Positions 2,342-62,877 of a stretch of 64,000 nt of DNA are shown piece after piece. Numbering within the stretch: the stretch's first letter is position 1; each line of letters starts with the position of its first letter. The position numbers and the translations under genes were made by a program. The notes under the pieces were generated by a model. The model made no database searches, had not been told where the DNA came from, and was given only the letters and a program-made list of their open reading frames with translations. The DNA is from Dehalococcoidia bacterium (lineage in GTDB: Bacteria; Chloroflexota; Dehalococcoidia; Bin125). The stretch is from the NCBI GenBank assembly GCA_965242485.1, contig CBDESM010000003.1:1357362-1421361 (forward strand). The letters are read 5' to 3'.

Positions 2342-3199
2342 CTAGATCTGCGAATAGCCGGTGCCGGGCGCGTCGACGCCGGTGCCGGCGGGGGTCTTGC
2401 CGCCCATGTCCCAGCCGAACTCCTTCAGGATCTGCTGCGAGTAGGTGACGCGGCCGGTGACCTGGTCGAGCGGCTCGGAGGCGAGCAGCAGCGCGGCCTG
2501 CGCCATGATCTCGACGCTCTCGGCGTCGTTCGGGTCGCGGCCCTCCATCAGGCGGTGGTGGACGACGCCGGGCGTGGGCACGATCTGGGAGGGGCTGTAG
2601 CAGCTGACGGAGACGCCGAACTGGTAGACCTCGGAGGCGAGCCCCTGGGTGAAGCGTTCGAGCGCGGCCTTTTCCGCGCCGTAGAGCGAGCCGCCGCCGC
2701 CGTCGCCCTCGTAGGGGCCGCGGCCGGGGCCGATCGCGGCGGCGCTGGAGACGTTGACGATGGCGCCCGTCTTGCGCTCGATCATGCCGCCCTCGTTGAG
2801 GCAGAGCTGCGACATGTAGAAGGGGCCGTGGAAGTTGACCGCGGTCGAGCGCAGCCAGCGGTTGACGGGGAAGTCCTTGACCGGGATGAAGTAGGTCAGG
2901 GCCGCGTTGTTGACGAGGATGTCGGGCGGGCCGTAGGTATCGATGCACTGCTGCACGATCTGGGCGCACTCGTCGTACTCGGAGACGTTGCCGGCGACGG
3001 CGGTCGCCTCGCCGCCGGCGTCCTTGATGTTCTTGATCGTCATCTCGAGCGAGCCGGGCAGGGGGTGGGTGCCCTCCTCGAGGGTGCGGGCCGTCGCGAT
3101 CACCTGCGCGCCCTCGGCCGCGAAGCATTCCGCGATCGCCGCGCCGATCCCGCGGCTCGCGCCGGTCACGATCGCCGTCTTGCCGTCCAACTTGCCCAT
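2342..3199 (-). CDS. SDR family oxidoreductase
   Basis: Start MGKLDGKTAIVTGASRGIGAAIA (TGxxxGIG Rossmann motif), AAGGAG RBS upstream. NNAA and YxxxK-type SDR core present. Confidence 0.75.
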   Translation of the reverse strand: MGKLDGKTAIVTGASRGIGAAIAECFAAEGAQVIATARTLEEGTHPLPGSLEMTIKNIKDAGGEATAVAGNVSEYDECAQIVQQCIDTYGPPDILVNNAALTYFIPVKDFPVNRWLRSTAVNFHGPFYMSQLCLNEGGMIERKTGAIVNVSSAAAIGPGRGPYEGDGGGGSLYGAEKAALERFTQGLASEVYQFGVSVSCYSPSQIVPTPGVVHHRLMEGRDPNDAESVEIMAQAALLLASEPLDQVTGRVTYSQQILKEFGWDMGGKTPAGTGVDAPGTGYSQI

Positions 3200-3261: not shown

Positions 3262-4440
3262 TCAGGTTCCGGCCCGCTGCCAGCGCGCGCCCGGCTCGAT
3301 CCGCCGCCGCGCCAGCCGGGCGAGCGCGGCAAACGCGCCGACGCCGATGCCGAGCCGAGCGCGGAGGCCCGCGTAGGTGGCGTCGCCGCGCGTGATCCGG
3401 CAGCAGGTGCGCCAGAAGCGATCGGAGTGCTGGAGCAGGCGCACGTAGGGCCAGGGCAGCGCGTGGAACAGCGCTTGGAGATCGCGGGCGGCGGCCAGCT
3501 CGGGCTCGATCTCGCGCTCGACCGCCGCCGCGTAGGCGCGGAAGTCCGCTTCCTCGCCGGCGATGATCCGCAGCGCCGCCGCGGCCGCCAGCCGGCCGGA
3601 GCGGATCGCGTTGCCGATGCCCTCGCCGGAGAGCGGGTCGATCAGCCCGGCCGCGTCGCCGACGAGGGCGGCGCGGCCGGCGTGGAGCGCGTCGCCGGGG
3701 TCGCGCAGGGGCAGGTGGTGGCCGCGCAGGCCCGACAGCCCGCCGCCGTCGAAGCCCTCGCTGCCGGCGTAGTCGGCCAGCTCGCGGCGCAGGCCGCCGG
3801 CGATGGCGGGGAAGCCGCCGACGCCGAGGTTGCAGTGGTCGCCCTTGGGGAAGACCCAGCCGTAGCCGCCGGCGAGGCTGCCCAAATCGAGGCCGACGTG
3901 CTCGCTCCAGCGCCCGCCGGGGCCGCCGGAGGCGCGCGCGGCGTTGGCCTCGATCGCGACGGCGGCACGCATGCGGGGCAGCCCCAGCGCGGCGCGGCAG
4001 GCCCCGTTCGCCCCGTCCGCGCCGATGATCGCGTCGGCCGAGAACGCGCCGTCGTCCGTGTGCACCGTCGTCCCCTCGAGCCCGCGGACGGCGATGCCCT
4101 GGCGGAATTCGGCGCCGGCCGCGGCCGCCCGCTCGGCCATGTAGGCGTCGAGCCGGGAGCGCTGGGTCATCAGCACCAGCGGCTCCGCGAAGTCGTGCTC
4201 GTACTCGCGCCCGCGGCGGTAGCGGACGCGGAAGCCGCGGATCTCGCGTTCGACGACCGGGTCCAGCGGATAGGGCAGCGCCTTGGCGGCGCTGATCAGC
4301 ACGCCGCCGCCGCAGGGCTTGTCGCGCGGGAAGGCGGCCCGGTCGAGCATCAGCACGCGCGCGCCGGCGGCGGCGAGGTCGTAGGCCGCGCTGGAGCCGG
4401 CCGGCCCCGCGCCGACGATGATCGCGTCGTAGCGGCTCAT
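3262..4440 (-). CDS. Geranylgeranyl reductase family FAD-dependent oxidoreductase
   Basis: Start MSRYDAIIVGAGPAGSSAAYDLA (GxGxxG FAD motif). FPRDKPCGGG and GDAAGLIDPLSGEGI motifs. ATGA overlap with plsY stop. The N-terminal 117 codons of the listed ORF are antisense-type extension. Confidence 0.75.
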   Translation of the reverse strand: MSRYDAIIVGAGPAGSSAAYDLAAAGARVLMLDRAAFPRDKPCGGGVLISAAKALPYPLDPVVEREIRGFRVRYRRGREYEHDFAEPLVLMTQRSRLDAYMAERAAAAGAEFRQGIAVRGLEGTTVHTDDGAFSADAIIGADGANGACRAALGLPRMRAAVAIEANAARASGGPGGRWSEHVGLDLGSLAGGYGWVFPKGDHCNLGVGGFPAIAGGLRRELADYAGSEGFDGGGLSGLRGHHLPLRDPGDALHAGRAALVGDAAGLIDPLSGEGIGNAIRSGRLAAAAALRIIAGEEADFRAYAAAVEREIEPELAAARDLQALFHALPWPYVRLLQHSDRFWRTCCRITRGDATYAGLRARLGIGVGAFAALARLARRRIEPGARWQRAGT

Positions 4441-5033
4441 CGCTCCGCCGCCCCGGCCGGGGCGGCCGCGCCGCGCTCGCGCAGGACCTTGTCGATTCCC
4501 GCCTTGAGGCCGGCCGCGATCGGCGCGGCGAAGCAGAAGCCGATCGCCGCGGGCGGGGCGCCGAAGGCGATCGCGAGGAAGGGCAGCGGCGCGGAGACGA
4601 GCAGGATGCCGAGCTCGGCCTTGCGCGTGATCAGGTAGACGATGCCGCCGACGACGAAGGTGGCGCCGAACTGGAGCGGCAGGAACGCGCCGGAAGCGCC
4701 GAGCGAGGCGGCCGCGGCGCGCCCGCCGTTGAAGCGCAGGAAGATCGGGAACATGTGCCCGGCCATGACCAGCGCGCCGGCCGCGGCCCACCAGCCGTGC
4801 TCGAGCCCGGCCCAGCGCGCGATCGAGACCGCGAGCAGGCCCTTGCCGATGTCGGCCAGGATGATGCCGACACCCGCGGCCTGGCCCGCGCCCTCGCGGG
4901 CCGCGTTGGCCGCGCCCACGTTGCCGTCGCCGGCGCGCCGCAGGTCCCCGCCCGTGAGCGCGCGGAAGACGAGCCAGGCGACGGGAATCGAGCCGAGCAG
5001 GTAGGCGGCTGCCAGGACGCCGGCCTCGGTCAC
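4437..5033 (-). CDS. plsY: Glycerol-3-phosphate acyltransferase PlsY
   Basis: 198 aa, multi-TM. GSIPVAWLVFRAL...GDGNVGAANA matches the PlsY signature. Confidence 0.8.
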   Translation of the reverse strand: MTEAGVLAAAYLLGSIPVAWLVFRALTGGDLRRAGDGNVGAANAAREGAGQAAGVGIILADIGKGLLAVSIARWAGLEHGWWAAAGALVMAGHMFPIFLRFNGGRAAAASLGASGAFLPLQFGATFVVGGIVYLITRKAELGILLVSAPLPFLAIAFGAPPAAIGFCFAAPIAAGLKAGIDKVLRERGAAAPAGAAER

Positions 5034-5076
5034 GGCCGGCTCCGCCGCCCCCGCCCGAACGCGCCGGCCGCCACCG

Positions 5077-6009
5077 TCAGTTCTGGCCGTCGTAGACGGG
5101 CGTGATCCAGTGCGCGTAGGCGTCGAGCCGGCCCAGGATCGCGTCGAAGAAGAGCCGCTGCAGCTGGCCGGTCACGTGCCCGATGCCGCCGTCGCCGACC
5201 TGCCGCCGGTCGACCGAGAGCAGCGGCGTCACGTGCGCCGCCGTGCCCGTCATGAACACCTCGTCGGCCAGCCAGAGCTCGCTGCGGTCGATCGAGCGCT
5301 CGACCGTCTCGATCCCCAGTTCCGTGCGGGCGAGCTCGATCACGGTGGCGCGGGTGATGCCGACGAGGATGTTGTCGCTCGAAGGCGGCGTGTAGATCAC
5401 GCCGTCCTGCACCATGAAGATGTTCTCGCCCGAACCTTCCGAGACGCTGCCGTCGTGGTTCAGCATGATCGCCTCGTCGAAGCCGTGGTGCACCGCCTCG
5501 GTGTTGGCCAAGGCCGAGTTGATGTAGACCCCGTTGACCTTCAGCCGCACCGGGATCGAGGTGTCGTCGGCCCGCCGCCAGGACGAGGTCATCACGTGCA
5601 CGCCGGCGTTGGTGTCGAGGTACGCGCCGAAGGGGGCGACGAACGCGAGGAAGTCGTCCTCGACGTCGTGCAGCCGCACGCCCAGGACCTCCTGCGACTT
5701 GTAGACCATCGGTCGGACGTAGCAGTCCTCCTTGAGGCCCGAGGCGGCGACCATCTCGTGGGTCAGCGCGCAGAGCTCGTCCTCGCTGTAGCGCAGCGGC
5801 ATCATCAGCCCGTGCGCCGATTTGCGTAGGCGCTGGTAGTGCTCGCGCATGCGGAAGAGGTAGAGCTGCTCGGTTTCCGCATTCCAGTTGGCGCGGATGC
5901 CCTCGAAGACCGCGGTGCCGTAGTTGAAGGCGTGGGTCATGACCCCGATCTTGGCGTCGGCGAGCGGCATCAATTCGCCGCGTAGGTGGGCCATCGGCGT
6001 GCCGGGCAT
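5077..6009 (-). CDS. ilvE: Branched-chain amino acid aminotransferase
   Basis: Start MPGTPMAHLRGEL with GGAGGAA RBS. Class IV aminotransferase features (FEGIRA, yeast-like VRPMVYKS). Confidence 0.8.
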   Translation of the reverse strand: MPGTPMAHLRGELMPLADAKIGVMTHAFNYGTAVFEGIRANWNAETEQLYLFRMREHYQRLRKSAHGLMMPLRYSEDELCALTHEMVAASGLKEDCYVRPMVYKSQEVLGVRLHDVEDDFLAFVAPFGAYLDTNAGVHVMTSSWRRADDTSIPVRLKVNGVYINSALANTEAVHHGFDEAIMLNHDGSVSEGSGENIFMVQDGVIYTPPSSDNILVGITRATVIELARTELGIETVERSIDRSELWLADEVFMTGTAAHVTPLLSVDRRQVGDGGIGHVTGQLQRLFFDAILGRLDAYAHWITPVYDGQN

Positions 6010-6128
6010 GGGCGGTTCCTCCGCTGGGCGCCGCAGGGTTCGCTCCCGCGCGCGGCATGGGACTCGGTGCGGCTCAGCATATCGCGCGGCTGCCCCGCCA
6101 CCGCGCCCGGCCTTCCCGCCCGCTCCCG

Positions 6129-6557
6129 CTAGGCCTCCAGGATCATCTGCGTCTGCGTCACCTGCGCCAGCAGCTTGCCCTCGGCGCTGAGGATCGTCGT
6201 CTGCCAGACGTGCGTGCGGCGGCCGCGGTGCAGCGGGCGGCACTCGCCCCGCACGGTCTCGCCCTCGCGCCCGCCGCGGAAGAAATTCGTCTTCGATTCG
6301 ATCGTCGTCGTGCCCGAGCCGTCCGGCGCGCTGATCATCGTCGCCAGCGCCCCCAGCGTGTCGGCGAAGGCCATGATCGCGCCCCCGTGCAGCAGCCCCG
6401 GCGCCGTGCAGAGCTCCCGCCGCACCTCCAGCTCGCCCGCGATCAGGTCCGGCTCGACCGAAACCAGCCGGATGCCCAGCAGCTCGGGCAGCAGCCCCCG
6501 CATCCGCTCGTACAGCGGCTCCAGCGCGATCTCCCCGCCGCCGGCCCCTTTCGCCAT
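6129..6557 (-). CDS. PaaI/hotdog-fold thioesterase
   Basis: 142 aa, MAKGAGGGEIALEPLYERMRGLLPELLGIRLV...LHGGAIMAFADTLGA...; typical PaaI family. The upstream part of the listed ORF is extension. Confidence 0.7.
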   Translation of the reverse strand: MAKGAGGGEIALEPLYERMRGLLPELLGIRLVSVEPDLIAGELEVRRELCTAPGLLHGGAIMAFADTLGALATMISAPDGSGTTTIESKTNFFRGGREGETVRGECRPLHRGRRTHVWQTTILSAEGKLLAQVTQTQMILEA

Positions 6558-7502: not shown

Positions 7503-8165
7503 ATGCCCTTCGGAAACCCGCTCGGACCCACCGGCGACCCGATGATGGACCCGCAGGCGGCCATGGCCAGCCTGCCCAAGCCGCGCACCAAGGTCTGGCG
7601 CGAAGAGCGGCTCGTCGACGACGTCTTCCTCGCCTACCTCGACAAGACCGCAGTCCTGCCCGAGCCCGATCTGGTCTGCCGCGTCTTCCTCGTCCTGCGC
7701 CGCGGCGAGCGCCACCTCGCCGTCCGCCTCGGCGACCGCCGCCAGCCGTGGCAGCTGCCCGTGCTCGAGCCCGAGATCACCCCCGCCGTGGAGGACGACG
7801 AGGCCGATATCGAAGCGATGCAGGACGACCGCCGCGAACGGCTCGGCGCGATGCTCTCGAGCGCCCTCGCCGATACTTGGCAGATCCCGCTCGCCGGCTG
7901 GCGCCAGTTCTCGCGCTTCCAGATGACCGCCAAGCAGAACCAGGACCAGTACGAGCCCGGCGCGCGGCGCTACGAGATCGTCGTGGTCGGCGAGTGCGGC
8001 GAACCCGATCAATTGGCCGAAGGAACCGAGTGGACCCGCCGCTTCCTGCGCCCGCGCGACATGAACAAGATCCTGCGCGAGCGCTACTTCGACAAGCCCG
8101 AGCTGATGCAGGCCCACGAGCGCCAGGTGATCGAAGCCCTCTCGGCCGCTGCGGCGGCCGGCTGA
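7503..8165 (+). CDS. Hypothetical protein
   Basis: 220 aa with protein-like composition (W/Y/F/K present); the antisense frames are R/G/A-rich. No family recognised. Confidence 0.45.
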   Translation: MPFGNPLGPTGDPMMDPQAAMASLPKPRTKVWREERLVDDVFLAYLDKTAVLPEPDLVCRVFLVLRRGERHLAVRLGDRRQPWQLPVLEPEITPAVEDDEADIEAMQDDRRERLGAMLSSALADTWQIPLAGWRQFSRFQMTAKQNQDQYEPGARRYEIVVVGECGEPDQLAEGTEWTRRFLRPRDMNKILRERYFDKPELMQAHERQVIEALSAAAAAG

Positions 8166-8435
8166 GGCGGCGCTGCTAGACTGGGCTTGTCATGGATGTC
8201 ATGGATGCCGTCATGAACACTGCGAGGCTTCCGCGCGGCGCTTCCGGCCGCGCCCCGTTCATCGCCCGGCCGCTCGTCGCTGTACCCGGCGGTTCCGCGC
8301 GACGCGCCCGCGGCTGAGAGCGCCGCGCGCATCGCCGCGGAACCAGCGCCGGTCGCGGGGCCGGCGCTCGCCGTTCCACCCGCCATCGCCTCCTCTCCCG
8401 CCCAGCGCGGAAGCCCCTCCGAACAGGAACGAACC
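8166..8435 (+). promoter_or_regulatory. Candidate ilvBNC leader/attenuator region
   Basis: 270-nt untranslated gap before ilvB. Contains a 41-codon small ORF (MDVMDAVMNTARLP...), a near-tandem 'gtcatggat' repeat, and two GC-rich palindromes (gcgccgg-N8-ccggcgc; ggttccgcg...cgcggaacc). Confidence 0.25.
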
Positions 8436-10115
8436 ATGCGAATGTCCGGCGCCGACATCCTGATGCACTGCCTCCGCGCCGAAGGCGTCGAGATCTTCTT
8501 CGGCTACCCCGGCGGCGTCGTCCTGCCGCTCTACAACCGGCTCGGCGACTACCCCGACATCAAGCACGTGCTGGTCCGCCACGAGCAGGCCGCGGCCCAC
8601 GCCGCCGACGGCTACGCCCGCGTTTCCGGCAAGATCGGCGTCTGCCTCGCCACCTCCGGCCCCGGCGCCACCAACCTCGTCACCGGCATCACCACCGCCT
8701 ACATGGACTCCGTCCCGATGGTCGTGATCACCGGCAACGTCGCCCGCGACCTGATCGGCCGCGACGGCTTCCAGGAGGCCGACATCACCGGCATCACCCT
8801 GCCGATCACCAAGCACAACTACCTGCTGATGCGGGCCAACGAGATCGCCCCCGCGGTCAAGGAAGCCTTCCACATCGCCGGCACCGGCCGCACCGGCCCG
8901 GTCCTCGTCGACATCCCCAAGGACGTCTTCATCGAAGAGGCCGAGTGGGACGGATACCCCCGCGAAGTCTCGCTGCGCGGCTACCCGGCCATGGACATCC
9001 CCCGCGCCGACGAGGTGGCCAAGGCGGCCGACGCGATCAACGCGGCCGAGAAGCCGATCATCATCGCCGGCCAGGGCGTCGTCGCCTCGGGCGCCGCGGC
9101 CGAACTGAAGCAGCTCGCCGAATCGGCCGACATCCCCGTGCTCACCACCCTGCTCGGCATCTCCGGCTTCCCCGACACCCACGAGCTCTCCTTCGGCTTC
9201 CTCGGCATGCACGGCAACTACTACGCCAACATGGCCGCCGACCGCGCCGACGTCGTGATCGGCATCGGCATGCGCTTCGACGACCGCGCCATGGGCCGCT
9301 TCGCCGACTTCAACCCCGGCGCCAAAATCGTCCACATCGACATCGACCCGGCCGAGATCGGCAAGAACTTCGAGACCCACGCGCCCGTCAACGGCGACGT
9401 CCGCGAGACGCTCGCGCGGCTGCTGCCCCAGCTCGACGCCGCCTCGCGCCCCGAATGGCGGGCCGAGATCGAGGCGATCAAGGCCGACCACCCGACCGAC
9501 TACATCGAAGAGGGCACTGACGTCACCGGCCCCTGGCTGGTCCAGGCCCTGGCCGAGGAAACCGACGGCGCGGCCACCATCGTCACCGGGGTCGGCCAGC
9601 ACCAGATGTGGGCGGCGCAGTACTACCCCTACTCGACCCCGCGCCAGTGGGCCACCAGCGGCGGCCTCGGCACGATGGGCTACGAAGTCCCCGCCGCCAT
9701 GGGCGCCCAGTTCGCCCAGAAGGAGCCGGTCTGGTCGATCTGCGGCGACGGCGGCTTCCAGATGACCTCGCAGGAGCTGCAGACCGTGCGCGAGCACGAC
9801 CTGCCCGTGCGCTACGCGATCTTCAACAACCACTACCTCGGCATGGTCCGCCAGTGGCAGGAGCTGTTCTACGAGAACAACTACCACTCGGTCGACTTGG
9901 GCCAGCCCGACTTCCTCAAGCTGGCCGACGCCTACGGCATCCCCGGCCTGCGCGCCGAAACCCGCGCCGAAGCCCGCCAGGTGCTGCGCGAGGCCAACGC
10001 GGCCGAGGGCCCCGTCGTGATCGACTTCCGCCTCCAGCCCGAGGAGAACGTCTGGCCGATGGTCCCGGCCGGCGCCGCGCTCTCCGAAACCATCGAATCC
10101 CCGGCCGAGCTCTAG
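8436..10115 (+). CDS. ilvB: Acetolactate synthase large subunit
   Basis: 559 aa; TPP enzyme with GYPGG...ATSGPGATN...GDG motifs, followed by ilvN and ilvC. Confidence 0.9.
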   Translation: MRMSGADILMHCLRAEGVEIFFGYPGGVVLPLYNRLGDYPDIKHVLVRHEQAAAHAADGYARVSGKIGVCLATSGPGATNLVTGITTAYMDSVPMVVITGNVARDLIGRDGFQEADITGITLPITKHNYLLMRANEIAPAVKEAFHIAGTGRTGPVLVDIPKDVFIEEAEWDGYPREVSLRGYPAMDIPRADEVAKAADAINAAEKPIIIAGQGVVASGAAAELKQLAESADIPVLTTLLGISGFPDTHELSFGFLGMHGNYYANMAADRADVVIGIGMRFDDRAMGRFADFNPGAKIVHIDIDPAEIGKNFETHAPVNGDVRETLARLLPQLDAASRPEWRAEIEAIKADHPTDYIEEGTDVTGPWLVQALAEETDGAATIVTGVGQHQMWAAQYYPYSTPRQWATSGGLGTMGYEVPAAMGAQFAQKEPVWSICGDGGFQMTSQELQTVREHDLPVRYAIFNNHYLGMVRQWQELFYENNYHSVDLGQPDFLKLADAYGIPGLRAETRAEARQVLREANAAEGPVVIDFRLQPEENVWPMVPAGAALSETIESPAEL

Positions 10116-12019: not shown

Positions 12020-12553
12020 TCAGCGGGTTTTTGCGTCGATGCTTTTGAGCAGGTCGCGGATTTCTTCTAGGACGGGTTGGTCGCTTGTTGGGGCGGAGGG
12101 CGCGGGGGTGGGGCTGCTGCTGGTTGTTACTTGGTCGCGTTGGTTGAGGACGGCGTCGCGGAATGCTTCGGTGTCGATGATGCCGTAGAGGTTGCCTTCG
12201 GCGCTGGCGTTGGGGCCGCCGGAGCCGGCTGTTTCGACGCGCAGGCCGCGGATGCCGTAGCGCCGCATGATCGGGCCGTGGTGCAGGCGCAGGTCGGTGA
12301 TCCGGTCCAGCGGGATCGTCGCCTCGCTCTTGGTGAAGACGCCGCGCCGGATCTCCAGCGAGCGCTCGGTCAGCCGCGCCGAGAGGCTGCGGTAGTAGGC
12401 CGGCGCGAACCAAGCCGAGAAGATCAGCCAGAAGGGGATCAGCGGAATCCCCGCCACCGTGATGAAGAGCAGCCCCGTCACCCACCAGCGCCCGTAGGCC
12501 TGCACCGCCGGGTCGAACTCCGCCTCCAGCAGCACCGTCTCGTTCCTCGCCAT
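12020..12553 (-). CDS. PH-domain (bPH_2/YdbS-like) membrane protein
   Basis: Start MARNETVLLEAEF. Two TM helices, then the conserved RGVFTKSEATIPLDRITDL bPH_2 pattern. Confidence 0.6.
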   Translation of the reverse strand: MARNETVLLEAEFDPAVQAYGRWWVTGLLFITVAGIPLIPFWLIFSAWFAPAYYRSLSARLTERSLEIRRGVFTKSEATIPLDRITDLRLHHGPIMRRYGIRGLRVETAGSGGPNASAEGNLYGIIDTEAFRDAVLNQRDQVTTSSSPTPAPSAPTSDQPVLEEIRDLLKSIDAKTR

Positions 12554-12776
12554 CGCGCACCTCCGTCCGCGGCACCCGGCCGCGCCCCGCAACGCTAGCG
12601 AACAGTGGAGCGCGACGCACGGCTGCCTCGCGCTTCCGCCTGCCGGGGGTCTTGCAGTGGACCGGGCCCGGCGGCTATCTTGCGTGCGCCGGCGAGAGCC
12701 GGCCGGGGTTCACGGGCGAGCACCGCGGGGCCTGCATCCACGTATATGACGGCGGGGCAGACGGGAGGGGGCGGCG

Positions 12777-14225
12777 ATGGGCCTAATGGCGCTATTTCGG
12801 CGGGCGGCTGCGCTGCTCGTCGCAGTCGGGCTGCTGGCCGTTTCGGTGGCGGGCGTGTCCGCGGACAACGGGGATGAAGAGACCGCCGTGGCGGCTGTGG
12901 CAACTGAGTTGCGGCCGACGCGGGTGGTTGCCGAGATTCCTGAGGGGTATGAAACATTGTTCCCGCTTGAGTGGGGAGGTGGCAGCCTGCTTCAACTCAA
13001 GGGCCGGTTGGCTGATCTCGGTTGCGCGATGAACACGCTGTGGTTCTATGATCGGGATAGATGGAATGGATACAACCGGTATGATCTGACGTACGATTTC
13101 CCGACCAATCGGCAGTTTCTCCAGCACTATGACCAAGAGGTACCCGCCGGCACGCTCTACGCGACCTGCGCGGATCAACCAGTCGGGAACGACCTACAGC
13201 CGACGCAGATCATCGCGGAGGTGCCGGAAGAATACGACACGATGTTTGAGCTGCAATGGGGAGGCGGGTCACTGCTGCATTTCAAGGGCCGTCTTGCCAC
13301 GATGGGGTGCATCGCAAACAACATTGAGATACACGATCTCGGTGCTGGTCGCACCTACACCTACAATCAATACAACACAAACTCAACAGACAGAGCAAAT
13401 CAACAATTCCTTACCAGCTTTGAACAATTCATACCTTCTGGAGCATTTTCGGCTGATTGCTATAACATCTGTGAATTCAAAGACAGGGAGTGTGTTTCGT
13501 TTGAGGGAGCACGAGATCAACATCAATATTATACAAGTGAAAAGTATCGTCTACAGGACGCAATTTGCACTAATGACTTTCACCCTATCGTTAAAGAAAA
13601 AGTTTTCCCTATACTACCTATGCTTCCCAATATTTGTATCATTAGATCTGGAAATAACACTGGATTTTATGGAGTTGGAGGTACTACATATACTTCAAAT
13701 TCTATACTGTATACCTTAAATATACAACCCTTTATCATGATATTCAGCGACAAAAATTACTATCGTAGAGATAACGAACATAGCGATATTTTGCTCCATG
13801 CAGAAATTCATGAATTGTGTCATATAAATCAACGATGGCACTGGACTCAACGATTAGCGCCCAACTTGAGTTATAACTATTCAGCCAATGCGCCTTGGCA
13901 ATATTTGCAAGCAAGTGAACATGGGAAAGAATTTATGATTGCCATAGGATATCAGATTGGTGGTATTGATTATGTGCCAAGCGCTACGGTATACAAAGAC
14001 ATATATAGTCCAGGAAGTATTATAGAGTTATCAGCTGAATTGTGCACTATGTATATTTTAGATAAAATGGGTCTTAATACTGCTTATAATTATCGCACAT
14101 GGAACATGTGGGATAAGATATTTGAAGAAATTCCAATTCGTGACTTCAATGTAAACAAATACCTCACCCCCCAAATCCGTGAATGGCTTGAAACCTATAT
14201 GATACTCCCTGAAATCACGGAATGA
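12777..14225 (+). CDS. Secreted protein with two N-terminal tandem ~95-aa repeats and a C-terminal HExxH zinc-metallopeptidase-like motif
   Basis: Signal peptide MGLMALFRRAAALLVAVGLLAVSVAGVSA. Repeats AEIPEGYETLFPLEWGGGSLLQLKGRLADLGC... and AEVPEEYDTMFELQWGGGSLLHFKGRLATMGC.... HAEIHELCH motif. GC drops from ~65% to ~35% within the ORF, around nt 13440. Confidence 0.55.
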   Translation: MGLMALFRRAAALLVAVGLLAVSVAGVSADNGDEETAVAAVATELRPTRVVAEIPEGYETLFPLEWGGGSLLQLKGRLADLGCAMNTLWFYDRDRWNGYNRYDLTYDFPTNRQFLQHYDQEVPAGTLYATCADQPVGNDLQPTQIIAEVPEEYDTMFELQWGGGSLLHFKGRLATMGCIANNIEIHDLGAGRTYTYNQYNTNSTDRANQQFLTSFEQFIPSGAFSADCYNICEFKDRECVSFEGARDQHQYYTSEKYRLQDAICTNDFHPIVKEKVFPILPMLPNICIIRSGNNTGFYGVGGTTYTSNSILYTLNIQPFIMIFSDKNYYRRDNEHSDILLHAEIHELCHINQRWHWTQRLAPNLSYNYSANAPWQYLQASEHGKEFMIAIGYQIGGIDYVPSATVYKDIYSPGSIIELSAELCTMYILDKMGLNTAYNYRTWNMWDKIFEEIPIRDFNVNKYLTPQIREWLETYMILPEITE

Positions 14226-14232
14226 GGGCACG

Positions 14233-15168
14233 ATGAGATTCGGCATTCACCTGATCCAGCAGAACATCTCGATGGCGGAGTGCCGGGGGCTTTGGCGCTG
14301 GGCTGATGGGGCGGGGTTTGACTGGTTCGATGTTTCGGACCACTTCTATGAGTCGCCGCAGACGCCGAAGAACGGGCCGTATCTGGAGTGCTTGGCGTGC
14401 CTTGCGGCGCTGGCTTGCGACACCGAGCGGATGCGGATCGGGACCGTGGTGCTGGCGATGGATTACCGGCATCCGGCCGTGCTTGCGAATGCGCTGGCGG
14501 CGATTGACCAGCTCGCGGAGGGGCGGCTGGAGCCGGGTTTCGGGGCGGGCTGGAATCAGCAGGAGTACGAGGCCTACGGGATTCCGTTCGAGCGGATCGG
14601 GCGGCGGCTCGATGTGCTGGAGGAGGGCATCCGGGTGATCCGGCTGCTGTTCGAGCGCGAGCGGGCCGATTTCCAGGGGCGGTTTTTCCAGCTGCGCGAC
14701 GCCGCCTGCCAGCCCAAGCCGCTGCAGGAGCGGGTCCCGTTCTGGATCGGCGGCAACGGCGAGCGGCGCACGCTGCGGCTGATCGCCGAGCATGCCGACG
14801 GCTGGAACTCGCCCTACGTCACGGCGGAGGAATGGCGTCGGCTCTCGGCCGTGCTCGACGCCCATTGCGAGGCGGTCGGCCGCGATCCCGCCACAATCCA
14901 GCGCGACGTCAACCTCTCCTTCCACCTCGCGGCGAGCGAGGCGCACCGCGAGCGCTCGGAGGCGCATTTCACGGAGGCGTTCGGCCCGGCCGGCGACGCC
15001 TTCCGCTCGCGCGGCGCGGTGCTGGGCACGCCGCCGGAGGCGGTCGAGATGCTGGGCGCGTACGCGGAGGCGGGCGTCGACCGGATCAACATCGCGTTGC
15101 GCCCGCCGCTCGACTGGGACGCGCTGCGCGCCTGGGCCGGCGAGGTGCTGCCGGCGTTCGCCGAGTAG
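14233..15168 (+). CDS. LLM-class (luciferase-like) F420/flavin-dependent oxidoreductase
   Basis: 311 aa. TIM-barrel LLM pattern (FDWFDVSDHF..., ERMRIGTVVLAMDYRHPAVLANALAAIDQLAEGRLEPGFGAGW). Confidence 0.65.
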   Translation: MRFGIHLIQQNISMAECRGLWRWADGAGFDWFDVSDHFYESPQTPKNGPYLECLACLAALACDTERMRIGTVVLAMDYRHPAVLANALAAIDQLAEGRLEPGFGAGWNQQEYEAYGIPFERIGRRLDVLEEGIRVIRLLFERERADFQGRFFQLRDAACQPKPLQERVPFWIGGNGERRTLRLIAEHADGWNSPYVTAEEWRRLSAVLDAHCEAVGRDPATIQRDVNLSFHLAASEAHRERSEAHFTEAFGPAGDAFRSRGAVLGTPPEAVEMLGAYAEAGVDRINIALRPPLDWDALRAWAGEVLPAFAE

Positions 15169-32102: not shown

Positions 32103-34937
32103 TTACTCACCCGGCTCCGTCAGCCGGCGGTTCGAGACCACGGGCTCCGAGGCCAGCATTCGCCGCAGCGGCGTCAGATCCGGCAGCCCCAGCACCTCCG
32201 CCAAGCCCGCATCCAGCCGTTCCCGCGCCGCGCAATCCGCCATCTCCGGCAAGGGCAGCAGCGTCTCCTCCGCCAATTCCTCGAACAGCGCCGCTAGCCG
32301 CTCCAGCTGCCCATCCGCCAGCTCGCGGACGTCGAGCACCGGCATTTCTTCCAAGTCGCCCTTCTTGAGGCTGACCCAGCCGCCTTCGGTTGTCGTTCGC
32401 GTGCCGAGCAGCGTGAGCAGTCCCAAACTGCTGTTCAGCCACAGCGCGAGGCCAAAATCATGCAGCTCTTCCGTGGTTTTGATCTCCCAGAAGACATTCG
32501 AGAGGACGTCCCGGTCGCATTTCATCGAAACCGTGCGGACGGTGTCCAAGCGCAACCGCTCCGCAACGAGCAGTCGCGCCGCCTTTTGCCAGAGATCCGT
32601 GGCGCTCTTCAATCTGCGTCCGGGTCGTGGTTTCGAGAGCGCTGCTAGATGTTTATTCGGTGCAACGCTCAGCGTTGTTCGTTCATTGGTGTCATGTCCG
32701 GCTACGAGCGGGTATGCCGTGTTGGTATCCGTATAGGTGAATCCGTCCAAGATGTCGCGGCGGTCCGGGCCGATGCTGCCGAGCTCGCCGAGCGGACAGA
32801 TTGGAAGCTCGGCTCTCGTCGACTGTCCTGGTACTTGGACCGTGCTACCGGCGAGCAGTGAGTGTGCTGCACGGGCGAGGTCGCCGCGCGAAAACTGCAC
32901 TCCGTCCCATTGTTCTCCCGTCGCGTCGCCTTGCGGCAGCGATATTGCTTCGCCGATGTGGCGGCCGTCGAGTTCGAGCAGGGCTGCGCCCGTTGCTTCG
33001 AGCTCGGCCGGGGGCGTCGCTCCGATCACGTCGGCGAGGCGGCCCGCGTCAAGCACGTTGTCGGGGTTTTCCCACAGATTCACGTAGGTCGTGCGCGACT
33101 CGCCTGTGTCCCCCTCCGCCCGTTTGGTCGCGATCAGCAGCGCTTCCGAGAGGTCGGTGCTGTCGGAGAAATTCCAGCGCTGCGGGTCGTGCGACGCGAT
33201 CACCATGTCCAAGCGGAAGTCGCGCTCGATCAGCGCCCGCGTCTGCTGCCACGAGCGGCCCGTGCAGACGGTCAGCGGCAGTACCAGCGCCAAGCGCCCC
33301 TCGCCGGCGCGGATTTTCGGCGTCACCGCGGCGACGAATGCAGCGCCGACGCCGGCTACGGCGGATGCGCCCTGCGACTTGAGCCGGGCCTTGATCTCGG
33401 ACTGGATTCGCGTCCGCTCCCTGTCCGGCAGGCTGCCGAAGAGCAGGCTCGAACGGGTGAACGGCGGGTTCATGATCGCCAAATCAAGCGGCGGCAGCAC
33501 CGCCGTATCAACTCCTTCTATTACCCCCCCCCCCCCCCCACTTATAGTATTCATCCCGCGTACCTTGGCGGGAGCAACGACCGCGACCGACTCGCCCGCG
33601 CCGAGCGGGTACTGCACGGCGGCCTCGCTCTGGCCGAGGAAATCGAGCGAGCCGAGCTTGACATCGTCGCTCGATGCTTCCAGCGGCATCACGTACAGGT
33701 TCATCCGGTCGAAGTGGATCGCCGGGTTCAGCATCGCCAAGCTGGTCGCCGCGAAGTGCACCGCCGAAAGCTGCACGTCGAACCCGTGCAGCGCCTGCTC
33801 GACCATCACCTTGTGCAGCGCGTCCTTCTTCTGCCCGCCCGCGGTCACGTGCCGCCGTTCCGCCTCCGACGCGACCGCCATCAGCAGCGTTCCGGTGCCG
33901 CAGGCGATGTCCGCGATGTTCAGCGAGGCCGGGAATTCGTGCTGCGCCCAATCCGTCTGCGGCGGCCACTGGTGGAAGACCAGCCGCGCCAGCATCGTCG
34001 CCGCCGGCACCGACGTGTAGTACGCCCCCGTGAATTTGGCGTCGGATAGCAGCGTGTGGAACAGCCGCCCCGACAAGTCGTGCCCCTCGACGTCGCGCGT
34101 CTGCCTGACCGCGTCGATCAGCGGGTCGATCACCGCGGCCTGCGCCGGCGCGGGCGCGTCGCAGAGGATGTCCAAGAGGTCCGCCGCCAGCTGGAAGACC
34201 GGCACGTAGTCGATCTCGTCGCAGATCGTGCGCCAAGCGTCGCGCAGCCCCGGCGCCCCGCGCTTGGCCGCCTCCGAAACCGTGGGCACCTGCGCGTGCG
34301 CGGCCGAGAGCCGCTCCTCGAAGGCGAGCGCGTTGAACAGCACCAGGCAGCCGATCCGCAGCGCCGCCGCCCGCTCCTTCTCCTTGTCCGACTCCGCGAT
34401 CGCGTCCGCGATCCGCTGCCCGATCCGCGCGTGCCGCGAGACTTCCTTGGCCGCCGTCTCCGTCGCGTAGCGCACCGCGCCGGCCGCCGCGGCCACGCGG
34501 TCGACGCCCTCGACGTGCAGGGGCAGCGCCCGCAGGAAATCGGCCAGCTGATGCGCGCTGCCGCTGCGCAGCTGCGGTTCCGGCTCGACCCGCTCCCGCG
34601 TGCTGTGCAGGTACCAGCTCAGATCCTCCGCCTCGGCTAGCGCCCGCCCCACGTCATCGGCCGTGTCCAGCCCCTGCGGATACAGCACCCCGATCCGCCC
34701 GATCGCGGCCGGGAACTCGCCGATTCGCTCCGCCAGCTGCGCGTCCAACTGCGCCCGTGCCCCCGCCCATTTGCACTCGACCAGCGCGAACTCGTCCCCC
34801 GCGAGCCGCTCGACGCGGATATCCGGCGCATCCCCGTCAAGCCGCTGCTCCGCCGCCGCCGCGATCCCCCGCGCCTTCAGCAACTCCCCCAGCAGCGTAT
34901 TCGCCGCCTCCTCCCGAGACCTCCATCGCCGCACCAT
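32103..34937 (-). CDS. Single-polypeptide nuclease + gamma-class N6-adenine DNA methyltransferase + C-terminal target-recognition region. Type IIL/IIG (MmeI-family-like) restriction-modification enzyme.
   Basis: 945 aa from ATG 34937 (MVRRWRS...). PD-(D/E)xK-like N-terminus (APDIRVERLAGDEFALVECKWAG). GAYYTS (the MmeI-type 'HYTS' motif X). Motif I IADIACGTGTLLMAV. Motif IV IMNPPF. A long C-terminal region. The listed ORF extends to a GTG at 35123 through a degenerate duplicated segment. Confidence 0.65.
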   Translation of the reverse strand: MVRRWRSREEAANTLLGELLKARGIAAAAEQRLDGDAPDIRVERLAGDEFALVECKWAGARAQLDAQLAERIGEFPAAIGRIGVLYPQGLDTADDVGRALAEAEDLSWYLHSTRERVEPEPQLRSGSAHQLADFLRALPLHVEGVDRVAAAAGAVRYATETAAKEVSRHARIGQRIADAIAESDKEKERAAALRIGCLVLFNALAFEERLSAAHAQVPTVSEAAKRGAPGLRDAWRTICDEIDYVPVFQLAADLLDILCDAPAPAQAAVIDPLIDAVRQTRDVEGHDLSGRLFHTLLSDAKFTGAYYTSVPAATMLARLVFHQWPPQTDWAQHEFPASLNIADIACGTGTLLMAVASEAERRHVTAGGQKKDALHKVMVEQALHGFDVQLSAVHFAATSLAMLNPAIHFDRMNLYVMPLEASSDDVKLGSLDFLGQSEAAVQYPLGAGESVAVVAPAKVRGMNTISGGGGGVIEGVDTAVLPPLDLAIMNPPFTRSSLLFGSLPDRERTRIQSEIKARLKSQGASAVAGVGAAFVAAVTPKIRAGEGRLALVLPLTVCTGRSWQQTRALIERDFRLDMVIASHDPQRWNFSDSTDLSEALLIATKRAEGDTGESRTTYVNLWENPDNVLDAGRLADVIGATPPAELEATGAALLELDGRHIGEAISLPQGDATGEQWDGVQFSRGDLARAAHSLLAGSTVQVPGQSTRAELPICPLGELGSIGPDRRDILDGFTYTDTNTAYPLVAGHDTNERTTLSVAPNKHLAALSKPRPGRRLKSATDLWQKAARLLVAERLRLDTVRTVSMKCDRDVLSNVFWEIKTTEELHDFGLALWLNSSLGLLTLLGTRTTTEGGWVSLKKGDLEEMPVLDVRELADGQLERLAALFEELAEETLLPLPEMADCAARERLDAGLAEVLGLPDLTPLRRMLASEPVVSNRRLTEPGE
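33524..33539. repeat. Homopolymeric C16 (G16 on the coding strand) inside the RM gene
   Basis: Read directly from the sequence: ttaCCCCCCCCCCCCCCCCactt. On the coding strand it encodes SGGGGGV in-frame, and it is flanked by unusually AT-rich codons. Confidence 0.9.
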
Positions 34938-34939
34938 GC

Positions 34940-35207
34940 CCCCATTGTCGCACAGCGCCCCGGCCGTCCCGTTTAACCGCGCGTGCCGCGAGATTTCCTT
35001 GGCCGCCGTCTCCGTCGCGTAGCGCACCGCGCCAGCGGCGGCCACGCGGTCGACGACCTCAATGTGCTGGGGCAGCGCCCGCCCCATATCCTCGGTCGTG
35101 TCCAGCCCCTGCGGATACAGCACCCTGATTTACCCGATCGCCGCCGGGAACGCGCCGATTCGCTCCGCCAACTGCGCCCGGGCCCCCGCCCATTTGCACT
35201 GGTGCGA
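34940..35207 (-). pseudogene. Degenerate duplicate of codons ~45–115 of the RM gene (contains an in-frame TAA)
   Basis: Minus-strand translation reads ...QCKWAGARAQLAERIGAFPAAIG*IRVLYPQGLDTTEDMGRALPQHIEVVDRVAAAGAVRYATETAAKEISRHAR. This is homologous to the RM gene segment KWAGARAQLDAQLAERIGEFPAAIGRIGVLYPQGLDTADD...SRHAR. About 90% DNA identity to 34420–34760. Confidence 0.4.
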
Positions 35208-35224: not shown

Positions 35225-35274
35225 AAAGCAACGGGGTGGCGAGTGTTGCTCCGAACACAGGAAGGGGCGGGGCG

Positions 35275-36141
35275 ATGCGCTGGGTACTTGTGGCTACAAT
35301 CGCGGTAATCGCAATTGCGCTGGTGGGAGCAATTCTATTTCTTTTTCAATCTGAGCAAGAGCAAGTCGAACCTCAGCCTACTCCACGCACATCCGTTGGG
35401 CGAACAGTCGTAGATGATGCGTATAATAATCCAGTTCCTGTGGATTTCAAGGATGGCAGCACAATTGACGTGCGTCCCGCAATTTTGATAACTGATAAAG
35501 ATGATTGGCGTTTGGCTGTGCAATTTAGACATAGATCAAGTCAACGGCAAAGTCAGCGCACCGTTCTTGGCAGAGTCAAGTCGTCGCAAATTGCTGAAAC
35601 GCGCATGGGCGATTGTTTTGCAAGCAAAGTTGTTCCTACGGGGGCAATAGTGCGCGACTCTGTATTGGCAGTGAAGGTCATCGCTTGTACGCACGATAAT
35701 GGCGATATTACACTTGGCATTCAAGGCTATCGCGCGAATGAACATGGCGATAAAGGCGAACGTTTCATCACCACACGTATTAAAAAAGAGCAACAACGTT
35801 CAGATATTTGGTTTAGTTCTACATTTACCAAAAATACTTACGATCTTATGCCGTGGCACTACACAGCACCACGAGCAGTGCCGACGTATCCTAGACAGTC
35901 TGATGTTCCGTCGTCCAGCCTTGAAGTTGATACAGGTGCTAGGTCGCGGGAAGTTTGTGATATTCACGGCGGGCGATGGACTGGGGGGCGATGCTTGAAA
36001 TATCACCAGCGCCCCATTGTTACGCAATCCGTAGAGTCTGCTTGCCGTGCCGTTTGGGGTGAGACGCAGCAATATTCAGAGTGTGTGTCTTTCTGTAAGT
36101 CAAATCCCACACTGCGGTCTCCAATGTGCGGGCGGCGCTGA
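35275..36141 (+). CDS. Hypothetical membrane-anchored protein encoded in a ~40% GC insert
   Basis: MRWVLVATIAVIAIALVGAILFLF (N-terminal TM) followed by a Cys-containing soluble domain. Composition strikingly different from the flanking ~70% GC DNA. No family recognised. Confidence 0.45.
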   Translation: MRWVLVATIAVIAIALVGAILFLFQSEQEQVEPQPTPRTSVGRTVVDDAYNNPVPVDFKDGSTIDVRPAILITDKDDWRLAVQFRHRSSQRQSQRTVLGRVKSSQIAETRMGDCFASKVVPTGAIVRDSVLAVKVIACTHDNGDITLGIQGYRANEHGDKGERFITTRIKKEQQRSDIWFSSTFTKNTYDLMPWHYTAPRAVPTYPRQSDVPSSSLEVDTGARSREVCDIHGGRWTGGRCLKYHQRPIVTQSVESACRAVWGETQQYSECVSFCKSNPTLRSPMCGRR

Positions 36142-36150
36142 TGTCCACCT

Positions 36151-36315
36151 TCACTCAACCAATGCGAACTTGCCTCTCGCCAGCCGCTCGACGCGGATAT
36201 CCGGCGCATCCCCGTCAAGCCGCTGCTCCGCCGCTGCCACGATCCCCCGCGCCTTCAGCAGCTCCCCCAGCAGCGTATTCGCCGCCTCCTCCCGAGACCT
36301 CCATCTCCGTGCCAT
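36151..36315 (-). pseudogene. Diverged 5' fragment (start codon + 54 codons) of an RM-gene copy
   Basis: Encodes MARRWRSREEAANTLLGELLKARGIVAAAEQRLDGDAPDIRVERLARGKFALVE*, versus MVRRWRSREEAANTLLGELLKARGIAAAAEQRLDGDAPDIRVERLAGDEFALVECK in the intact gene. Together with 34940–35207 it forms one split pseudo-copy of the first ~115 codons. Confidence 0.4.
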
Positions 36316-36339
36316 GCCCCCGATTGTCGCACAGCGCCG

Positions 36340-46254: not shown

Positions 46255-46358
46255 CGCCAGCCTCCTGCGCCCACAGGCTAGCGTCTCGGCGCGCGGAGTC
46301 CGCGAATGTCCTGCATAGAATGCCCGTGCCATGCTCGCGTCGCTGGAGGAACCGACTG

Positions 46359-48128: not shown

Positions 48129-48132
48129 TGAG

Positions 48133-48615: not shown

Positions 48616-48745
48616 GCTGCGCGGGCTGATCGTCGTTGCGAGGGGTTTGGGGAGATGCGCGAGATCAGCGGGGGCGGGGTGATTGCTGGCGGAGCGGCTT
48701 GCGGGGAGCCTTGTTGGGGGCGGGGCTTGCCGCTCCGCTTGTCGG

Positions 48746-49471: not shown

Positions 49472-49479
49472 GTTGCTCT

Positions 49480-56901: not shown

Positions 56902-56953
56902 GGGCCGGTCCTCCGTCCACAGTTTCGCACGCCGGCGGGCATACGATTCGAGG

Positions 56954-62864: not shown

Positions 62865-62877
62865 TCGGGCGTCCGCG

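Follow-up and report, generated by a model that had tools for sequence, protein, structure and literature searches.

A GC step within the gene of a putative secreted HExxH protein from a Dehalococcoidia-type lineage and its probable origin by cassette exchange

Organisation of the locus and composition of the focal gene

The window analysed here is a stretch of 64,000 nucleotides with a mean GC of 0.686. Positions 12777..14225 (+) form one unbroken ORF of 482 aa. Upstream lies the gene of a bPH_2 membrane protein (12020..12592 (-); Pfam PF03703, E = 4e-14), which falls outside the unit described below. The gene of a luciferase-like monooxygenase starts 7 nt past the stop codon (14233..15168 (+); Pfam PF00296, E = 3.6e-44). 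Both have host-like GC, and no immunity-like gene is found between the focal gene and the monooxygenase gene. The neighbours are housekeeping genes; neither mobility genes, nor a tRNA target, nor flanking direct or inverted repeats were found at the locus. As regards the criteria used for genomic islands, the composition is atypical, and the atypical DNA begins and ends within one gene. The 64-kb window holds no second paralogue and no orphan cassette. GC below 0.42 was measured in just 1.2% of the 150-nt windows across the 64 kb. These low-GC windows are confined to the focal gene and to one further island near 35.7 kb.

A conserved region that moves with the gene (12646..12776 (+)) comprises a promoter-like TTGAC...TTA(G/T)CT element and, behind it, a GC-rich 5′ leader that may form two hairpins. 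It can be aligned among paralogues at non-syntenic loci, and identity to one of them, L013, climbs from <0.5 to 0.91-0.98 starting at about 12690. A riboswitch or other known RNA in the 5′ leader was considered and dropped, because an Rfam search of the leader gave no match and covariation was slight (3 of 31 predicted pairs). A scan for promoters and terminators gave no signal above chance.

The ORF opens with a Sec-type signal peptide (12777..12863 (+); GC 0.70), with MGLMALFRRAAALLVAVGLLAVSVAGVSA before and DN after the predicted cleavage site. Read from the sequence, it has a basic n-region, a hydrophobic core and a V-S-A motif, and S-A-D is almost invariant in the family alignment. The leader is GARP-rich, as in other members from high-GC hosts. 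The two ~95-aa tandem repeats claimed in the earlier note were confirmed (44% identity over 90 aa, E = 9e-30). Repeat 1 (~95 aa; 12903..13187 (+); GC 0.58) adopts a β-α-β-β-α-β order in the AF2 model (m407721bb970e, pLDDT 84) and is absent from single-repeat paralogues. Repeat 2 (13188..13478 (+)) is conserved, occurring in every member of the family, and contains the GC step. Within it, the block 13242..13316 (+), WGGGSLLHFKGRLATMGC, is a candidate 5′ recombination anchor, with a mean pairwise nucleotide identity of 0.72-0.76 in 12 genes; identity of the window gene to its paralogues L013 and L003 drops off just past this block. The conserved gene end, 14166..14222 (+), TPQIREWLETYMILPEITE, is a candidate 3′ anchor (mean pairwise nucleotide identity 0.71-0.76), and is 84% identical across 64 nt to the gene L007 of a 42%-GC host. 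The two blocks are the most DNA-conserved of the family, and their peaks match the boundaries of the DNA blocks shared between relatives.

The collapse of GC in mid-ORF that had been noted earlier was confirmed by the GC profile, by GC3 and by a change-point analysis. GC is 0.605 over 12777-13259 (leader 0.70, repeat 1 0.58), declines within repeat 2 from 0.56 (13188-13330) to 0.42 (13331-13478) and is 0.364 over 13440-14225. The ~33-35% first given for the 3′ part was therefore slightly low, but essentially right. The AT-rich tract ends at the stop codon, and GC recovers in the flanks to 0.75 upstream and 0.65 downstream. The maximum-likelihood change point was placed at 13361 (+) (gene nt 585, aa 195), with GC of 0.60 to its left and 0.36 to its right. 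Its log-likelihood ratio (LLR) was 39.9, whereas the other long ORFs (n = 28) did not exceed 11.0 and had a median of 3.5. Along the gene, GC3 falls from 0.77 to about 0.25-0.4, whereas long coding ORFs elsewhere in the window average 0.864 (n = 28). The foreign-like 3′ cassette segment, 13362..14225 (+), has a GC of 0.36, and a GC3 of 0.31 in its last 750 nt. In the comparison of codon usage that the earlier note had called for, the preference flips to donor-like in the 3′ part: the 3′ cassette scored -0.76 to -1.02, genes of 42%-GC genomes -0.90 and host genes +0.69. Repeat 1 had an intermediate score of 0.02, and the 5′ part is intermediate in both composition and codon use, short of fully host-like.

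The HExxH domain and its family

The C-terminal domain (aa 227-482; 13455..14222 (+)) is a putative zincin-like metallopeptidase domain with conserved cysteines. Its model (m23e49407b585; pLDDT 86.5, pTM 0.89) shows in order three strands, a long helix bearing HExxH and a later helix bearing ExxxE. As had been reported, HAEIHELCH is present in the AT-rich part. HELCH, the HExxH motif (13809..13823 (+)), is invariant in 113 sequences and lies in helix 106-131 of the model. The invariant residues are E343, H345, E346, C348, H349, Q352, E417, E421 and C423. ELSAE (14025..14039 (+); helix 189-204) lies in invariant columns and may supply the third zinc ligand through E417 or E421, in a gluzincin-like manner.

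The best Pfam match of the protein was PF18894, at E = 0.032 and 14.8 bits against a cut-off of 23.7. Scans with NCBIfam, PHROGs and PADLOC gave nothing above threshold. A profile search of the PDB gave just one spurious match (E = 0.14), and Foldseek found no match with E < 0.1 for either AF2 model against the PDB or for the C-domain against BFVD. Distant family members reached 24.4 bits with SprT-like, below the cut-off of 25.6. The profile search of the C-terminal part that had been suggested thus returned Pfam zincin families at sub-threshold level only. Of the metalloprotease-like assignment, the invariant and helical HExxH motif stands; a significant match of sequence or structure to an established peptidase family was not obtained. 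Most likely, the gene encodes a zincin-like metallopeptidase that is secreted and disulfide-bonded, the secretion and peptidase activity being predictions. The family resembles the minimal zincins (SprT-like PF10263, M78 PF06114, DUF6782 PF20573, PhageMetallopep PF18894) in having the HExxH helix after a small β-sheet; the weak matches of the window protein and of distant members to these families all fall on the HExxH region, below curated thresholds. What sets it apart is an N-terminal signal peptide and the ~95-aa repeat in one or two copies, together with the conserved cysteines and a remote ExxxE helix.

This family of secreted HExxH proteins is undescribed: it counts 157 representatives among 1.84 billion, has no Pfam or NCBIfam model, and no structural neighbour was found. 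About 190 homologues align end to end with the protein across the junction. A scan of genome contigs gave only two loci, both in one Dehalococcoidia MAG. No relatives were found by scans of JGI metagenomes and IMG/VR. With tblastn, no member of the family was found among phage and plasmid sequences, and thus no vector was identified.

The 5′-high/3′-low GC step recurred in each of the eight homologues that were studied on high-GC contigs (L001, L003, L004, L009, L010, L012, L013 and L014, the step being weaker in L014). Several assemblies bear it, complete long-read chromosomes among them; they include a Dehalococcoidia chromosome of 2.85 Mb (187x) and a circular contig of 2.84 Mb. The neighbouring genes are unrelated at eight further loci. 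On ~42%-GC chromosomes, where the hosts are known from 6-7x contigs only, the gene adjoins ribosomal operons and its composition matches that of the host. More than 95% of the typeable known members are in high-GC hosts, and the cassette pool could mostly circulate there. In one homologue, from another 67%-GC genome, the C-part has a GC3 of 0.68, showing that AT-richness is not demanded by the protein.

Exchange of cassettes among relatives

In order to compare the two parts of the protein, 47 two-repeat proteins (1081 pairs) were used. The identities of the N- and C-parts had a correlation of r = 0.14, and in some pairs N identity was 0.95 and C identity 0.37. Sixteen C-domain clusters are linked to one leader cluster, and seven to the leader cluster of the window gene. 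Low-GC-hosted genes are spread over three C clusters, two of which have high-GC-hosted partners at 85-93% aa identity.

Two comparisons resolve breakpoints. Between L012 and L007, DNA identity is <0.5 over nt 1-400, 0.80-0.98 from about nt 440 to the stop codon and <0.35 beyond (blastn, 90.5% over 943 nt), and the GC step of L012 coincides with this breakpoint. Between L009, on the Dehalococcoidia chromosome, and L008, identity is <0.35, then 0.66-1.00 and mostly at least 0.8 over about nt 165-1100, and <0.37 after (blastn, 88.3% over 940 nt). In both cases a high-GC host (L012, L009) and a 42%-GC chromosome (L007, L008) share the block of ~940 nt, which spans from the repeat start to the stop codon, with up to 100% identity in 90-nt windows. 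When ~38 kb of low-GC sequence was compared with ~140 kb from high-GC hosts, no further nucleotide similarity was found, and the HisRS of low-GC and high-GC hosts are just 45% identical at the aa level. At the syntenic locus L003/L013, the flanks are 0.85-0.96 identical (about 93%), the 5′ part of the gene 0.81-0.83 and the 3′ part 0.39-0.55. There, the cassette was replaced in situ.

On the shared blocks, dN/dS was 0.14-0.23 with dS about 0.4, showing that these blocks are under purifying selection. The AT->GC skew in the copies of high-GC hosts is weak (51:42 and 56:44), consistent with recent arrival. As both host types carry AT-rich cassettes, base composition does not tell which way any one transfer went. 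A DGR-like mechanism was discarded, there being no template or variable repeat near the gene and divergence being spread through the whole domain.

As for the window gene itself, identity to the non-syntenic L013 is 0.91-0.98 from -90 to +180, 0.73-0.89 to about +500 and then 0.28-0.57. The earlier note had proposed a mosaic in which recombination placed a catalytic module on a native secretion and repeat scaffold. This is supported by the 5′ part together with ~90-130 nt upstream, 83-98% identical to L013, and by the 3′ part, 28-57% identical and with donor-like codons. Compared separately, as had been advised, the two halves differ in their identity to relatives, as seen from L013 and from the N/C correlation. 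The swapped unit is however wider than the catalytic domain: since the junction lies within repeat 2, it consists of the repeat, or part of it, and the catalytic domain. In databases, the closest relative of the window C-domain has just 53-54% aa identity. For this cassette, a putative foreign origin is deduced from its composition and codon usage, from its mosaic pattern against L013 and L003 and by analogy with relatives. The cassette (GC 0.36, GC3 0.31) is AT-richer than the sampled low-GC hosts (0.40-0.45), which would point to an even lower-GC donor or to some selection for AT-richness.

Explanations of the mosaic and related systems

Very probably, the focal gene is a genuine mosaic produced by recombination, and belongs to a family with several copies in a ~69%-GC Dehalococcoidia-type lineage. 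Its resident 5′ module, GC-rich and long established, would consist of ~130 nt of promoter and leader, the Sec signal peptide and, here, an extra repeat, the leader and signal part being nearly unchanged in numerous paralogues from separate chromosomal sites. The 3′ cassette of ~0.9-1.0 kb, with the conserved repeat, the linker and the HExxH domain, would have been replaced repeatedly via homologous recombination (double crossover or gene conversion). Crossovers would take place in two anchors. One would be the start or core of the repeat (WGGGS...KGRLATMGC), the other the final ~20 codons (EWLETYMILPEI). For the window gene, a crossover may be placed at about 13320-13365. In composition and codon usage, the cassettes would match bacteria of ~42% GC or less that have the family natively, from which transfer presumably ran towards the GC-rich hosts. 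If cassette turnover outpaces amelioration, a GC cliff would be kept in every copy. The catalytic domain would stay functional and be diversified as alternative alleles.

The earlier note had alternatively considered an assembly chimera, in which the AT-rich stretch represents mis-joined reads of another organism. Composition does shift abruptly within one ORF, and the source was probably a metagenome. However, the flanks are host-like on both sides, the frame is kept through both junctions, the ~190 homologues align over the junction and the step is repeated in independent assemblies, including the 187x chromosome and the circular contig. We therefore rejected this extremely improbable alternative. 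It had also been argued that homologues sharing the composition would imply ordinary bias. The step is indeed shared, but bias does not follow from it, since recurrent family-wide cassette exchange accounts for the shared step. A gene-specific bias would mean a long-resident family with 3′ AT-richness selected through a nucleoid silencer, slow translation of the secreted enzyme or amino-acid composition. It would agree with the pattern being in all high-GC-hosted copies, with an amino-acid composition that is FYMINK-rich too, with the window cassette being AT-richer than the sampled low-GC hosts and with the absence of mobility genes and flanking repeats. We consider it unlikely, in view of the sharply bounded 88-90% DNA identity with 42%-GC chromosomes (100% in some 90-nt windows), the uncorrelated N and C histories, the cassette replaced at the syntenic locus and the homologue with a C-part GC3 of 0.68. 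Selection for AT would moreover leave the match of codon choice to low-GC genomes unexplained; it could add to transfer.

One ancient transfer of the whole gene from a low-GC donor, followed by duplication, with the 5′ end alone undergoing faster amelioration or gene conversion, could account for the graded GC of the window gene (0.70, 0.58, then 0.36), for leaders homogenised among paralogues and for the intermediate codon usage of repeat 1. Synonymous sites of the C-module are however saturated, yet GC3 remains at the donor level (0.31-0.48, as compared to 0.86 for the host), which argues against a single old transfer, as this should have ameliorated. The three low-GC-hosted genes in three C clusters, two with partners at 85-93% aa identity, and the breakpoints of L009 and L012, sharp and not graded, further make this scenario improbable. 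A polymorphic toxin system of Rhs/CDI type, with a C-terminal antibacterial toxin and a downstream immunity protein, would match the conserved N-terminal and variable C-terminal parts and the GC and codon bias differing as in Rhs C-termini, and such systems include metallopeptidase toxin domains (PMC8636562). But the cassette is not followed by any conserved small gene, and each locus has other neighbours; every C-domain is an allele of the same homologous fold and keeps the invariant residues, unlike a set of unrelated toxins; the leader is a plain Sec-type one, with no Rhs/PAAR/VENN-type delivery region in Pfam and NCBIfam scans; and a defence-system library gave no match. There is little probability that the focal gene belongs to such a system.

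Beyond the recombinant mosaic itself, we tentatively propose that the family might be a standing cassette-capture platform, in which several copies with a fixed front of promoter, leader and signal peptide use two anchors for importing protease-domain alleles from very distantly related low-GC bacteria living in the same community, which might be associated with sponges. The hint at a sponge holobiont comes only from a Sanger sponge genome note with a similar assembler, similar MAG names and Dehalococcoidia MAGs. If true, this would represent an adaptive cross-phylum allele pool that diversifies extracellular enzymes and needs neither mobile elements nor immunity genes nor specialised recombinases.

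In colicins and pyocins and in phage tail fibres, an N-terminal module is kept and C-terminal modules are exchanged horizontally, giving mosaic genes. Their modules serve killing or receptor binding and come with immunity or chaperone genes and phage or plasmid vectors, whereas no phage or plasmid relative of the focal family was found. Rhs and CDI systems are alike in joining a conserved N-part to a variable C-part, in having several copies per genome and in a conserved junction sequence. The GC and codon-bias difference of Rhs C-termini has been ascribed to frequent recombination (PMC8636562). Those systems exchange unrelated toxin folds, whereas the focal family swaps diverged alleles of one HExxH/ExxxE/Cys domain. 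Unlike them, it is without a downstream immunity gene, orphan cassette arrays, a YD-repeat shell or a PxxxxDPxGL/VENN motif; it would be exported by a plain signal peptide, and a conserved 3′ anchor bounds the exchange. Delivery domains of Rhs/CDI type (YD shell, PAAR, TPS/FHA) had no Pfam or NCBIfam match in the family.

Lateral transfer of partial genes has been described as common in prokaryotes (Chan et al. 2009; PMC2817436), and the focal family is similar in that breakpoints lie inside the gene and one ORF has two histories. Such transfers are usually detected between fairly close relatives, whereas here ~940-nt blocks are shared across ~27 GC points between hosts with HisRS at 45% identity, and the same two boundaries were hit repeatedly. 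A breakpoint-resolved partial-gene transfer across ~27 percentage points of GC, recurring in a multi-copy family, is unusually clean. A GC cliff within one ORF can persist as a trait of a whole family, upheld by turnover, and does not have to reflect a single accident or an artefact. Such stable cliffs bear on compositional detection of HGT, on models of amelioration and on quality control of MAGs, where they may be flagged as possible chimeras. The family seems to be under diversifying pressure in uncultured Dehalococcoidia, which makes its members candidate host- or competitor-directed effectors.

A compositional break within a single reading frame

The predicted secreted metalloprotease-like gene at 12777..14225 (+ strand) is a single reading frame encoding 482 aa. 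In a window with a mean GC of 0.686, GC falls from 0.70 in the leader to 0.58 in repeat 1, then from 0.56 to 0.42 along repeat 2, and reaches 0.364 over 13440-14225. The AT-rich stretch ends with the stop codon. The 300 nt on either side have GC values of 0.75 (upstream) and 0.65 (downstream), and a luciferase-like monooxygenase gene of host-like GC starts 7 nt after the stop codon. GC3 drops from 0.77 to about 0.25-0.4, whereas 28 other long coding ORFs average 0.864. A two-segment model placed a change point at nt 13361 (aa 195) with an LLR of 39.9, against values of at most 11.0 in the 28 other ORFs. The GC collapse described in the earlier note is real and far beyond chance. The two tandem repeats (44% identity, E = 9e-30) and the HAEIHELCH motif reported there were also recovered. 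Codon usage was scored as the log of host/donor synonymous codon preference, with host genes at +0.69 and genes of 42%-GC contigs at -0.90. The leader scored +0.36, repeat 1 +0.02, the first half of repeat 2 +0.34, its second half -0.76 and the C-domain -1.02.

Exchange of 3′ cassettes between homologues

About 190 homologues were found, none with Pfam or source annotation, and a profile search of 1.84 billion representatives gave only 157 members; the protein family is undescribed. It comprises two-repeat (~470-500 aa) and single-repeat (~375-400 aa) forms. Complete chromosomes of ~2.85 Mb, among them OZ242037.1, deposited as a Dehalococcoidia MAG, carry several paralogues. Chromosomes of ~42% GC, represented by low-coverage contigs, have three or four members, with genes for ribosomal proteins, tRNA synthetases and MreB/PBP2 as neighbours. 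In these hosts, the gene matches host composition over its full length, AT-type signal peptide included. On one such contig (L008, 3410-6384), a single-repeat gene (3410-4519) and a two-repeat gene (4909-6384) lie in tandem, separated by a 92-aa ORF (4549-4827), showing that the low-GC lineage has both architectures.

Blocks of the gene are shared between the two host types. The homologue of L012, a high-GC-type host with the family's usual GC-rich leader, and that of L007, a 42%-GC host, cannot be aligned over gene nt 1-400, are 0.80-0.98 identical from ~nt 440 to the stop codon, and are again unalignable beyond; the breakpoint coincides with the GC step in L012. A similarly bounded block, from ~nt 165 to the stop, links L009 (a Dehalococcoidia chromosome) to L008, with 90-nt windows reaching 100% identity. 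By blastn, identity is 90.5% in the L012/L007 block (943 nt) and 88.3% in the L009/L008 block (940 nt); no further similarity emerged when ~38 kb of low-GC sequence was compared with ~140 kb of high-GC sequence. HisRS, the sole housekeeping gene common to both sets, shows 45% protein identity. With a dN/dS of 0.14-0.23 and a dS of about 0.4, the shared blocks are functional and under purifying selection. Differing sites show a slight, non-significant GC excess in the high-GC host (51:42 and 56:44). Such an excess would be expected if some 10-20% of the divergence had built up under host bias, where long residence predicts a share near 0.7, and fits recent arrival in the high-GC host.

The two parts of the protein vary independently of each other (r = 0.14 between N-part and C-part identity; 47 two-repeat proteins, 1081 pairs), with extreme pairs at N 0.95 / C 0.37 and, in one case, N 0.39 / C 0.93. 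Leaders of one type (at least 80% identity) occur with 16 C-domain clusters, mutually <60% identical, and those of the window gene's type with seven. Three low-GC-hosted genes fall into three different C clusters, together with Dehalococcoidia-hosted genes. At the syntenic locus of two strains, L003 and L013, identity is 0.85-0.96 in the flanks and 0.81-0.83 in the 5′ part of the gene but only 0.39-0.55 in its 3′ part, which is an in-situ replacement. As compared to L003, L013 also carries an extra ~1.2 kb gene (7590-8789; 0.70 GC, 399 aa) directly 3′ of the family gene; it has no Pfam match and is not a family member by tblastn.

The earlier note had proposed a recombination mosaic, with an assembly chimera as the alternative. 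Of the homologous genes on high-GC contigs, eight were examined, and every one had the same high-to-low GC step, weaker in L014. These genes are only 44-67% identical to the window protein and have unrelated housekeeping genes as neighbours; among their contigs are a linear one of 2.85 Mb at 187x and a circular one of 2.84 Mb. The recurrence of the step in independent contigs, the intact frame and the host-like flanks on both sides exclude a chimera. Ordinary gene-specific bias alone does not account for the shared blocks, the modularity and the in-situ replacement. AT-richness is not required either, since GC3 is 0.68 in the same domain of a homologue from another genome, of 67% GC.

The window gene itself displays a mosaic structure and a flip in codon preference. 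When it is aligned with non-syntenic L013, DNA identity in the 5′ module is 0.91-0.98 between ~90 nt 5′ of the ATG and about +180; it stays at 0.73-0.89 as far as about 13270 and then decays to 0.28-0.57. This nearly identical 5′ module and membership of the family point to a Dehalococcoidia-type taxon for the window. In the shared 5′ part dS is 0.36, while the C modules are saturated. The window cassette (13362..14225) is the most AT-rich seen in the family, and no relative above 53-54% aa identity was found among 5.8 billion proteins. Thus, the mosaic structure of this gene is demonstrated, and its cassette would come from an unsampled donor.

Boundaries, origin and upstream region

When DNA conservation was ranked across 12 family genes, two blocks stood out: aa 156-180 (WGGGS..KGRLATMGC; nt identity 0.72-0.76) and the last ~19 codons (EWLETYMILPEI; 0.71-0.76). 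Each exchanged block starts where the conserved repeat begins, or close by, and ends with the stop codon; the change point of the window gene falls just 3′ of the first conserved block. Incoming DNA would recombine with the resident copy by double crossover or gene conversion anchored in these two blocks. Neither mobility genes nor flanking repeats were found around the focal gene, nor phage or plasmid relatives of the family in our searches. Composition and codon usage point to an ultimate low-GC origin of the cassettes; because these are AT-rich in both host types, the direction of single transfer events is not provable.

Of known systems, C-terminal displacement in Rhs/CDI polymorphic toxins comes closest; the C-terminal regions of these toxins differ from the shell in GC and codon bias owing to recombination (PMC8636562). 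The C-terminal part of the present family differs likewise, but three features that define such systems are lacking: the immunity gene, toxin folds unrelated to one another, and the delivery domain. The family further exemplifies lateral transfer of gene fragments (PMC2817436), unusual in the compositional and phylogenetic distance bridged and in its recurrence at fixed boundaries. By analogy, a sponge holobiont is suggested as a possible habitat.

Some 130 nt 5′ of the ATG are conserved among paralogues at non-syntenic loci (window 12646-12776; L013 5869-6000; L003 3192-3321; L001 4873-5000; L010/L004 ~2876-3000 / 4876-5000; L012 803-927). Besides a promoter-like TTGAC(N17-19)TTA(G/T)CT element, this region includes a GC-rich leader that could form two hairpins (GCCGGCGnGAGCCGGC; CGCGGTCAAnnACCGC), so that expression signals come with the resident module itself. 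Compensatory change was seen in only 3 of 31 predicted pairs. The region has no Rfam match and may be a family-specific regulatory leader.

Predicted protein and other features of the window

The leader, as read from the sequence, resembles a Sec signal peptide with a V-S-A cleavage motif, and the protein looks secreted. Confident AF2 models were obtained for the C-domain (pLDDT 86.5, pTM 0.89) and for the repeats (pLDDT 84; order beta-alpha-beta-beta-alpha-beta). The modelled C-domain has three strands, a long helix with the invariant HExxH and a later helix with invariant E417/E421; together with its invariant cysteines, this predicts a zincin-like layout suited to an extracellular protein, and a putative peptidase. 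The focal protein had no significant Pfam match (best PF18894, E = 0.032) and none in NCBIfam or by PDB sequence search. Foldseek against PDB and BFVD gave E > 0.1 throughout, with weak matches leaning to zincins. Distant members show near-threshold SprT-like, M78 and DUF6782 matches at the HExxH region and carry fn3, CarboxypepD_reg or DsbA-like domains. Speculatively, the repeats could be a prodomain.

A second low-GC island (35236-36141, with 34767-34943 and 36145-36321; down to 0.42 GC) codes for a membrane-anchored protein of 301 aa that is rich in Cys and has no Pfam match. A direct repeat of 177 nt (90% identity) on either side of the island duplicates a 5′-terminal portion of a methyltransferase-like gene (32103-35123, minus strand, 1006 aa), an arrangement that resembles an insertion with target duplication. 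Within that gene, the N-terminal region also has internal duplications (34425-34490 / 34977-35042, 94%; 34632-34742 / 35067-35177, 87%). A third, milder patch of about 0.47 GC (47995-48615) encodes a 206-aa protein without Pfam match, directly downstream of an N6/N4 DNA methylase-HNH fusion gene (46320-47840). Because the same methylase-HNH type adjoins a family member in L004, the gene for this protein is possibly defence-island cargo. Low-complexity, repeat-rich coding potential on both strands of 48650-49870 (ATDAD / PVPPVP runs in minus-strand ORF 48746-49819; HRR repeats on the plus strand) possibly reflects a repetitive protein that is secreted or surface-located. A 30-nt inverted repeat lies upstream of the focal gene (9932-9961 / 12231-12260; 93% complementary, arms 2.3 kb apart); it has one arm inside a bPH_2 gene and possibly reflects two diverged bPH-type genes in opposite orientation. 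Finally, strong positive GC skew is sustained over 54001-64000, at 0.19-0.33 per kb, far above the rest of the window.
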